Of a stretch of 64,000 bases of DNA, positions 26,662 through 28,163 are shown one piece after another. Made by a program: the position numbers and the translations under genes. Origin of the DNA: Promethearchaeota archaeon (lineage in GTDB: Archaea > Asgardarchaeota > Lokiarchaeia > Sigyniarchaeales > SOKP01); NCBI GenBank assembly GCA_016839765.1, contig JAEOTP010000043.1:4345-68344 (forward strand). The letters are read 5' to 3'. The notes under the pieces were generated by a model, which searched no databases, was not told where the DNA came from, and saw only the letters and a list, made by a program, of their open reading frames with translations. Position 1 is the stretch's first letter, and every line of letters starts with the position of its first letter.

Positions 26662-27886
26662 TTAGAAATAATAAACGTTAATTTGTTCTGGAATGGTTAA
26701 TTCTTCTTCTTTATTTTTACATGCTATGAATTTGATTTTCATATTCATTACCAGTGTTAGAAGACGTTTAGACAGAATTCCATCAATAATTATAAATTCA
26801 GTTTGGTTGTATTTTGATATCTCCTCAAATAATTTGCCTGCAGTTAAATCAAATAATTTCTCAAGTTTATTATTAAATCCGATACTATGGCCTGATGGAA
26901 TTGTCTTTAATGCTTGTGTTATGATTGATTGATTTTTCACTTTAAGTTTTCTTAGTAACTTACTAAGCTTTGTTTCTGTAACTTTTTTCTCCATAACAGA
27001 AGATGTTTCTCCTGGTTTTTCTAAAGATTCTGTTGTAGATCTCTTATTCTGGAGAGATTTTATCATCTGTTTCCTGGTTAATTCTTCTACTTCATATCCA
27101 TCAGGAGCGTGAGCAATAAAGTCTACATTAATTAACTGCATTAACTCTTTTGTAATTAATTCTCCGCCCCTATCTCCATCGCAGAATATTGTTACTCTCT
27201 CTTTTTTTTTCGCTAAATCTATAACTGATTTAGGAATATGGGTTCCTTGGACGGCTACAGTATTTTTTATCCCTATTCTAAGTAGGTTTAAAACATCAGC
27301 TCGCCCCTCGACAATGATTAAATCATCATCACTTTCAACGTTTGGTCCAGCTGGTAATCCTTCAGGACCCCATTTTATAATTTCACCAAGTTTAATATCT
27401 GTATCTATTTTTTCTTCAATTTCACTAGGTTCAAGAGATTTTTGATCCCATTCTTTTAATAATTCTGCTGCACGTTCAATGATTTTTTTGCGCTTTCTTT
27501 CCCTTACATCTCTAATCTCAATGAGACGGATTTTAGCTTCACAAGGTCCAACACGGGTAACAGTTTCAATAGTTGCCGCCAATAATGCAGTCTCCTTTCT
27601 AGTTAAAGAAGATGGAATTTTAATAATACCAGTAGAAACACCCTCCTTAGATTCGTTTTCTACTTCAATTCTTCCGATTCGTCCTGACTTTTGAAGATCT
27701 CTTAAATCGAGATCTAAAAGGAGACCCTCAGTTTAGCCGATTTAGCCGAAATGGCTTTAAAATTTACCTTTGACCAAATATGGCGCCAACTATATCGCTT
27801 TTTTCAACCACTCCCTTAATTTCAAATTTTGTTTCAATAATATATTTTGTAGTAAAATCTACCTGATTATTTGTAATCTTGATCAC
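26662..27886 (-). CDS. dnaG: Archaeal DnaG (TOPRIM primase-like protein, exosome-associated); two exons 27886..27770 and 27732..26662
   Basis: Exon 1 reads ...TKYIIETKFEIKGVVEKSDIVGAIFGQ; exon 2 continues TEGLLLDLDLRDLQKSGRIGRIEV...IIVEGRADV...DGDRGG; joined product about 395 aa; the ORF track captures only the C-terminal part. Confidence 0.92.
27733..27769 (-). other. Candidate 37-nt bulge-helix-bulge/loop pre-mRNA intron in dnaG
   Basis: Insert AGGTAAATTTTAAAGCCATTTCGGCTAAATCGGCTAA; central helix GGTC/GGCT flanked by two AAA bulges; cutting AA|A at both gives GGT CAA ACT GAG. Confidence 0.75.
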
Positions 27887-28163
27887 TTCCGTATTACTTA
27901 ATTAAAATTTATTTCTTTATTTTTATGAGATAATTATAATCTTAAATGATTTCAAACATTTTAAATTGAAAATATGATTTTTAGTTCAGTTTTTTTTGTG
28001 TATTTTAATTTTAAATGCTTTTAAGTCATCAATAAATAGATGATCAATTTAAATAAATAATTCTTTCCATTTATTTTTTGCTGAATAAAAAGGCAAACAA
28101 AATTGTTTGCAGCCATAACATCTCCATAGGATATTTATTTTTAAAGAAAATATTTAATAGATA

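Follow-up and report, generated by a model that had tools for sequence, protein, structure and literature searches.

The dnaG gene carried by the window, by which we mean the whole 64,000-nucleotide stretch of Promethearchaeota DNA analysed here, is broken by 37 nt, and we consider it very likely (probability of roughly 0.85) that these nucleotides form a relaxed, HBh’-type bulge-helix-bulge (BHB) intron that is spliced out of the dnaG pre-mRNA by EndA and RtcB. A preliminary description of this DNA, made from the letters alone, had proposed that an mRNA is spliced here by the tRNA-splicing machinery, and this proposal is now supported by an exon junction in RNA contigs, by covariation among relatives and by the two EndA paralogues and the RtcB that the genome encodes. 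The parts of the gene are as follows.

26662..27886, minus strand: the whole dnaG gene, broken by 37 nt.
27770..27886, minus strand: exon 1, with 39 codons, a GTG start at 27886 and a C-terminal GAIFGQ, taken from the list of open reading frames and their translation.
27733..27769, minus strand: the putative 37-nt intron, read from the sequence and skipped in RNA contigs of the runs X17 and X18.
26662..27732, minus strand: exon 2, with 356 codons and a stop, beginning TEGLL and holding the Toprim domain, taken from translation, Pfam and NF003108.

On the minus strand, exon 1 ends in GGT CAA and its unspliced frame continues AGG TAA, which places an in-frame stop codon one codon past the exon; a 40-residue peptide is therefore all that the start codon could yield without splicing. 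Exon 2 starts at 27732 with ACT GAG GGT CTC, in a frame different from that of exon 1, ends with a stop codon at 26662..26664, and contains no start codon in its first 50 codons. When compared with NF003108, the NCBIfam profile of archaeal DnaG, exon 1 covers profile positions 1-26 and exon 2 positions 27-282. Since the two segments abut at 26/27, the interruption is a clean insertion between adjacent profile positions, and the insert that had been described as splitting dnaG is indeed present exactly there. Exon 2 by itself scores 362 bits, where the cut-off of the profile is 300, and is matched by the Toprim families of Pfam, which identifies the gene as an archaeal dnaG. A search of the whole host genome (3.32 Mb in 96 contigs, 95.9% complete) returned a single dnaG, the interrupted gene, in keeping with the expectation that there is no second copy. 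Neither did the intron sequence have further copies in this genome, as among four loose matches only the one in dnaG is real.

Inserts at the same site are widespread among related archaea. A first set, made up of 37 dnaG loci found in the window and in 40 relatives, contains an insert of 29-39 nt at the identical codon boundary in 12 loci and none in the other 25. A second set, drawn from a species-representative genome collection, added 80 further loci, 76 of them with a complete junction, and 28 of these 76 are interrupted. Pooled, and with the two sets overlapping in genomes, 40 out of 113 loci carry an insert, amounting to 30 distinct junction sequences of 29-43 nt. The presence of such inserts in many independent assemblies bears out that the window’s insert is real in DNA, and relatives with same-site inserts and covarying helix pairs, which had been suggested as a check, are thus at hand. 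An order-wide search with the profile gave a match in 146 of 154 genomes. By our row count, the best match in about 49 of the 146 does not begin at profile position 1 but somewhere in 19-27. In seven further genomes, the match does run from position 1 but includes internal stops, and one of these, G003, was checked at the base level. Its insert (locus L028) is 39 nt long, a length divisible by three, and contains in-frame stops, so that the profile match runs on across it; the other six genomes with such stops are G072, G098, G117, G128, G131 and G150. Altogether, interrupted dnaG genes are spread over at least nine genera in two families, while in family f2 (12 matched genomes) and family f4 (4), some of whose genomes are single contigs, dnaG is uninterrupted.

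Two of the sampled genomes deserve separate mention. Locus L008 (genome G026), which belongs to a different family, has a 29-nt intron of different sequence at exactly the same codon boundary, with compensatory changes to G-C in the third pair of the central helix and to C-G in the third pair of the inner helix (both described below). This intron may share its origin with the others, or it may have been gained separately at a site that favours insertion. The bin G023, on the other hand, contains two dnaG genes on its contigs C40 and C91 (L022 and L038), one intronless and the other with a 38-nt intron. Given its 6% contamination, this bin probably combines two populations and does not carry a true paralogue pair.

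The structural motif that had been read in the window, GGUC-AAA-GGU...AUC-GGCU-AAA, could be confirmed on the minus strand, and it recurs in the relatives. Its elements are the following.

27772..27775, minus strand: 5’ strand of the central helix H, GGUC, formed by the Gly codon and the first base of the Gln codon of exon 1, with 27735..27738 as partner.
27735..27738, minus strand: 3’ strand of the central helix H, GGCU, near the 3’ end of the intron and part of the RNAalifold consensus helix.
27769..27771, minus strand: bulge 1 (AAA), the predicted 5’ splice site, A[A/G]N in 30/30 sequences, with the RNA junction inside.
27732..27734, minus strand: bulge 2 (AAA), the predicted 3’ splice site, AAA in 30/30 sequences, with the RNA junction inside.
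27766..27768, minus strand: 5’ strand of the inner helix h’, GGU, GAU in most relatives, with 27739..27741 as partner.
27739..27741, minus strand: 3’ strand of the inner helix h’, AUC, with 27766..27768 as partner.
27744..27756, minus strand: hairpin internal to the intron, AGCC-AUUUC-GGCU, its 3’ arm being copy 1 (the ‘decoy’) of a direct repeat.

Covariation was assessed on a MAFFT alignment of the 30 distinct junction sequences. In helix H, every sequence forms all four pairs (120 of 120 cells), and the third pair varies between C-G (17 sequences), U-G (5), A-U (5), G-U (2) and G-C (1). This varying pair involves the third position of the Gly codon, where changes are synonymous, so that the exon-1 side reads GGNC, and in 30/30 sequences GGNC pairs with the last four intron bases preceding the terminal AA. 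For the inner helix h’, 91% of the cells are paired; the 3-bp pairings encountered across the sequences are GGU/AUC, GAU/AUC and GAC/GUC, with one two-sided change from UA to CG. The internal hairpin helix is paired in 93% of the cells among those sequences that have its columns. The short introns of 29-32 nt are without the AGCC/GGCU hairpin and have a different one instead. The interiors of the introns are divergent, with at least two types of hairpin, and their ends are conserved. Taken as a whole, the named structure is paired in 95.3% of its cells versus 90.3% after shuffling, with a covariation score of 0.159 versus 0.077, and for both measures none of the 500 shuffles reached the observed value. 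Sliding the partners by 1-3 columns reduced pairing to 10-48% of the cells, compared to the 95.3% at slide 0. When no structure was supplied, RNAalifold returned a consensus consisting of helix H and nothing more.

A 4-bp helix H between two 3-nt bulges is accordingly present, as is the inner helix h’, but the outer helix h of a strict hBHBh’ motif is lacking, in that no pairing directly follows bulge 2. The weakness of this outer helix had been recognized in the preliminary description, and we find that the exons pair here only if two additional bases on the 3’ side are left unpaired. Because the outer helix is non-canonical, the motif falls into the relaxed HBh’/BHL class and not the strict form; because the bases concerned are coding-invariant, covariation cannot test this helix. 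The minimum-free-energy fold of the isolated window fragment is not a BHB (z-score -0.79). Over the 30 sequences, folds constrained to the BHB have energies between -8.8 and +8.5 kcal/mol, and the minimum free energies lie between -9.0 and -20.9 kcal/mol. These nearest-neighbour energies would count against a strongly pre-formed BHB, at least in isolated fragments.

The GGCU in the arm of the internal hairpin (27744..27756) duplicates the 3’ strand of helix H (27735..27738). AGCC and GGUC thereby each have two potential partners, which makes mutually exclusive folds possible, and the window’s minimum-energy fold employs one such alternative pairing. The duplication is part of a 9-nt direct repeat, TCGGCTAAA, present at 27749..27741 and 27740..27732 on the minus strand, to which a decoy 3’ site had been attributed. 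The repeat itself stands, being perfect in the window, but it is confined to the small clade of the window, relatives having it in part, and the ‘decoy’ is best regarded as a hypothesis.

How would such an intron be removed? In the mechanism that we propose, the end of exon 1 (GGUC) would pair with the end of the intron (GGCU) to form the 4-bp central helix with a 3-nt AAA bulge on each side. The 3-bp helix within the intron, GGU/AUC, would close the 5’ bulge, while the 3’ bulge would open into a loosely paired region of the exon. A two-subunit EndA would cut once in each bulge, after which RtcB would join the exons to GGU CAA/ACU GAG, restoring the GAIFGQ-TEGLL motif; the intron would presumably be released, probably as a circle. 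We infer both the identity of the enzymes as EndA and RtcB and the exact positions of the cuts. The boundaries can in fact slide by up to 3 nt inside the AAA bulges with the product unaltered.

The candidate enzymes are encoded in the same genome. There are two proteins of the EndA family, of 201 and 205 residues and 26% identical to each other, each with both EndA domains. Paralogue 1 has the catalytic Tyr, His and Lys positions and is most similar to the catalytic chain of the crenarchaeal heterotetrameric enzyme. Its alignment to the crenarchaeal alpha subunit is gapless across the loop region, which we take to be the Crenarchaea-specific loop. In paralogue 2, the His position is replaced in a pairwise alignment, as would be expected of a structural subunit, and the two may form an alpha/beta-like pair. 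RtcB is encoded as well, and uninterrupted. The genome would therefore provide both a splicing endonuclease and an RNA ligase, with the broad specificity of the former taken from PMC5829648, in which the Asgard EndA is reported as an (alpha-beta)2 enzyme with an L1 loop insert linked to a broad substrate range. A preprint counts 44 of 60 Asgard genomes with two EndA paralogues and describes the tRNA genes of the group as heavily interrupted (bioRxiv 10.64898/2026.10.13.758758). In the present genome, ARAGORN found 15 tRNAs when introns were disallowed and 19 when they were allowed, with an intron in 11 of the 19; some of the calls (Pyl, SeC) are doubtful. Since so few were found although the genome is 96% complete, many of its tRNA genes are probably interrupted in ways that ARAGORN misses.

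Removal at the RNA level might also be the work of something other than EndA and RtcB, be it another endonuclease and ligase or an unrecognised self-processing element. The thermodynamic weakness of the BHB, its want of a proper outer helix and the fact that the role of EndA is predicted from sequence speak for this possibility. We nevertheless deem it quite unlikely, because the part of the structure that is conserved and covaries is the very geometry recognized by EndA, with two 3-nt bulges 4 bp apart and an inner helix, and because the observed RNA junction falls within both bulges. Moreover, Rfam gave no match over 27500..28100, inserts of 29-43 nt are too short for group I or group II introns, and the spliceosomal-like GU at the 5’ end is not conserved, the relatives having GAU. 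In the window’s clade, the 5’ end of the intron does read CAAAG/GUAAAU (27763..27772, minus strand), resembling a eukaryotic 5’ splice site. This likeness is probably coincidental, as most relatives have GAUAA there.

Splicing by EndA and RtcB predicts an RNA in which the exons are directly joined, and the junction GGT CAA ACT GAG had been derived beforehand from the bulges. Contigs of four metatranscriptome runs that have sequence words in common with the gene were compared with 26662..27900. One contig of run X17 (151 nt) joins 27731 to 27769, skipping 37 nt and otherwise differing in 3 letters, and one of run X18 (340 nt) contains the same 27731-27769 join, again skipping 37 nt with 3 other letters. 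These contigs stem from two different studies, are 98-99% identical to the window, and both carry the predicted junction; 3 nt at the joint fit either side, and its position is the predicted one, inside the AAA bulges. Excision thus restores the product, with profile positions 26 and 27 contiguous and the junction present in RNA contigs. It should be noted that this RNA support consists of assembled contigs with a depth of 2.6-3.2 and not of raw reads, and that the libraries may hold DNA. The X19 contig ends at 27719, short of the intron. One contig of run X20 is about 86% alike and comes from a more distant relative; its loose end reads as a direct join of exon 1 to exon 2, but was not counted, since this is our own reading of a loose end with no listed joint. 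Neither an unspliced transcript nor the intron as a circle turned up among the metatranscriptome contigs. The X18 contig reaches 116 nt past 27900 (to about 28016), at least 130 nt beyond the GTG, into AT-rich and apparently intergenic sequence; this extension may stem from a long leader, from transcriptional read-through or from carried-over DNA.

Could the two contigs instead derive from an intronless allele, as a transcript or as carried-over DNA? The insert would then be left unspliced, and the gene expressed through translational bypass or as two polypeptides. The premises are real enough, in that RNA runs can contain DNA, the junction occurs in just two contigs of low depth, intronless dnaG is found in many related species, and one bin holds both forms. 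However, the contigs hardly differ from the window, and one of their variants, the T>A at 27812 found in both X17 and X18, is also the state of the closest intron-bearing genomes. Over 27641..27900, the six other sampled loci with an identity of 97.7% or higher all carry the insert, and no sampled locus without an intron exceeds an identity of about 75%. The DNA control points the same way. A direct exon junction was matched neither in the JGI metagenome contigs nor in the genome collection (0 each), as opposed to nine insert-bearing contigs in which the same exon flanks are separated by a gap of 30-40 nt (3 from the JGI metagenomes, all holding the expected intron, and 6 from the genome collection). 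Bypass would have to do with unmatched take-off and landing codons (CAA versus UAA/ACU) and would be unnecessary if the RNA is without the gap, and for two polypeptides exon 2 offers no start codon for 50 codons. We therefore regard an origin from an intronless allele as very unlikely, and return to splicing of the dnaG mRNA.

The coding sequence behaves as that of a working gene. In every one of the 113 loci, exon 2 has an open frame of no fewer than 321 codons. Its dN/dS is 0.07-0.19 in ten pairs of intron-bearing genes, an eleventh pair having a saturated dS, and 0.10-0.23 in three intronless pairs. These values indicate that dnaG with the insert is under purifying selection, in line with the claim that selection on it is not relaxed. 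That dnaG became a pseudogene through a small insertion, or that the insert is an assembly artefact, would account for a frameshift with an immediate stop in the unspliced gene but is extremely improbable, given that this dnaG is the sole copy in its genome, that the insert recurs in dozens of independent assemblies from different species with its ends conserved and its interior divergent, and that exon 2 is intact everywhere with a dN/dS as low as in intronless genes. With regard to the history of the spliced intron, a tree of exon 2 of DnaG (113 rows, obtained by a quick search, with the root and the direction of change assumed) places the intron-bearing rows as a basal grade of the window’s 99-row clade, with the intronless groups nested within. 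At least six changes of state are needed, three of them forced by starred branches, and one same-site intron occurs in an outgroup family. As far as such a tree can suggest, this pattern fits an old intron with several losses.

Are there more genes like this one? A loose scan of the genome, for a 4-bp H with one 3-bp helix, introns of 16-120 nt and filters on the joining of open reading frames, gave 7465 matches. The 14 matches to the full strict motif were rejected, since all resemble AT-rich intergenic spacers. Among 2593 long open frames, 108 are without an early start codon, and some BHB-like join is possible in 69 of these 108, with no dnaG-like case among the 69. With a dnaG-like filter (A-rich bulges, at least two GC pairs in H and an intron of at most 70 nt), dnaG is the sole remaining match, although a filter derived from dnaG says little on the absence of other split genes. 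The cbf5 gene of this genome is uninterrupted.

Several consequences follow if the dnaG intron is what we think it is. In the prokaryotes most closely related to eukaryotes, the tRNA-splicing machinery would then also mature at least one mRNA, that of an essential single-copy gene. The intron is conserved in no fewer than nine genera, where compensatory changes have arisen naturally, and has transcript support. In about one third of these genomes, dnaG will be mis-annotated by standard gene callers, either as a truncated gene or as a pseudogene. The intron region moreover represents a compact natural substrate (about 75 nt) for studying the specificity of the Asgard EndA. In the openly searchable full-text literature, we found no report of an intron in dnaG or of any BHB intron in an Asgard mRNA, and within that literature dnaG is the second archaeal coding gene with a tRNA-type intron after cbf5, and the first in Asgard. 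A coupling of RNA decay to EndA/RtcB activity through this splicing, as had been put forward, is speculation. Likewise unlikely, if somewhat less so than the alternatives to splicing weighed above, is that dnaG is the visible tip of a larger group of Asgard mRNAs spliced by EndA and RtcB, its intron acting as a switch by means of the duplicated GGCU, with the output of DnaG set by RNA folding or by the availability of EndA and RtcB. If it were true, use of the upstream GGCU copy would excise 28 nt and lead to a premature stop in DnaG, a protein of exosome and primase, and the closest archaeal relatives of eukaryotes would possess regulated splicing of an mRNA by protein enzymes.

In gene 60 of phage T4, a short untranslated gap is kept in the mRNA and is bypassed by the ribosome, for which matching take-off and landing codons are needed; the dnaG case is unlike this one, its RNA contigs being without the gap and its codons unmatched. 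In eukaryotes, HAC1/XBP1 mRNA loses a short intron in a non-spliceosomal manner, through excision at stem-loops by the protein endonuclease IRE1. Ligation is of the RtcB type in animals, the change of frame controls the product, and the process is stress-regulated. IRE1 is not a Sen/EndA enzyme, however, and we claim no homology to dnaG. The geometry of the dnaG motif and its presumed enzymes are rather those of the non-canonical (HBh’/BHL) archaeal tRNA introns, from which dnaG differs in that its intron sits in an mRNA, where recognition cannot draw on a tRNA body.

Two archaeal mRNAs come closer. HVO_1309 of Haloferax volcanii has a BHB intron in its 5’ UTR that is a substrate of the tRNA splicing endonuclease, and according to that report, cbf5 was as of 2020 the only other archaeal mRNA with a reported BHB intron (PMC7714728). 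Both HVO_1309 and, by prediction, dnaG would thus be mRNA substrates of this endonuclease; the HVO_1309 intron is untranslated, so that no reading frame depends on it, and its EndA is homodimeric, in both of which dnaG differs. The cbf5 pre-mRNA intron is known from Crenarchaeota of the Desulfurococcales and Sulfolobales (Watanabe 2002; Yokobori 2009; PMC2738675). The last of these describes an unconventional BHB, predicted to be cut between bulge residues 2 and 3, together with a hetero-oligomeric EndA of broad specificity and a patchy gain and loss among relatives. Compared with this crenarchaeal intron, ours resides in a different host gene, dnaG, and in a different phylum, Promethearchaeota (Asgard), from sediment and wetland samples. 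It also lies between codons, whereas the cbf5 intron lies inside the codon for the catalytic Asp, and it is supported by metatranscriptome contigs and covariation where cbf5 has cDNA cloning and enzyme assays. In its essentials, the dnaG intron nonetheless resembles that of cbf5, being short, located inside a coding region, built on a relaxed BHB with the same predicted cut sites in the bulges, associated with a putative hetero-oligomeric EndA, and distributed in a patchy way across relatives.
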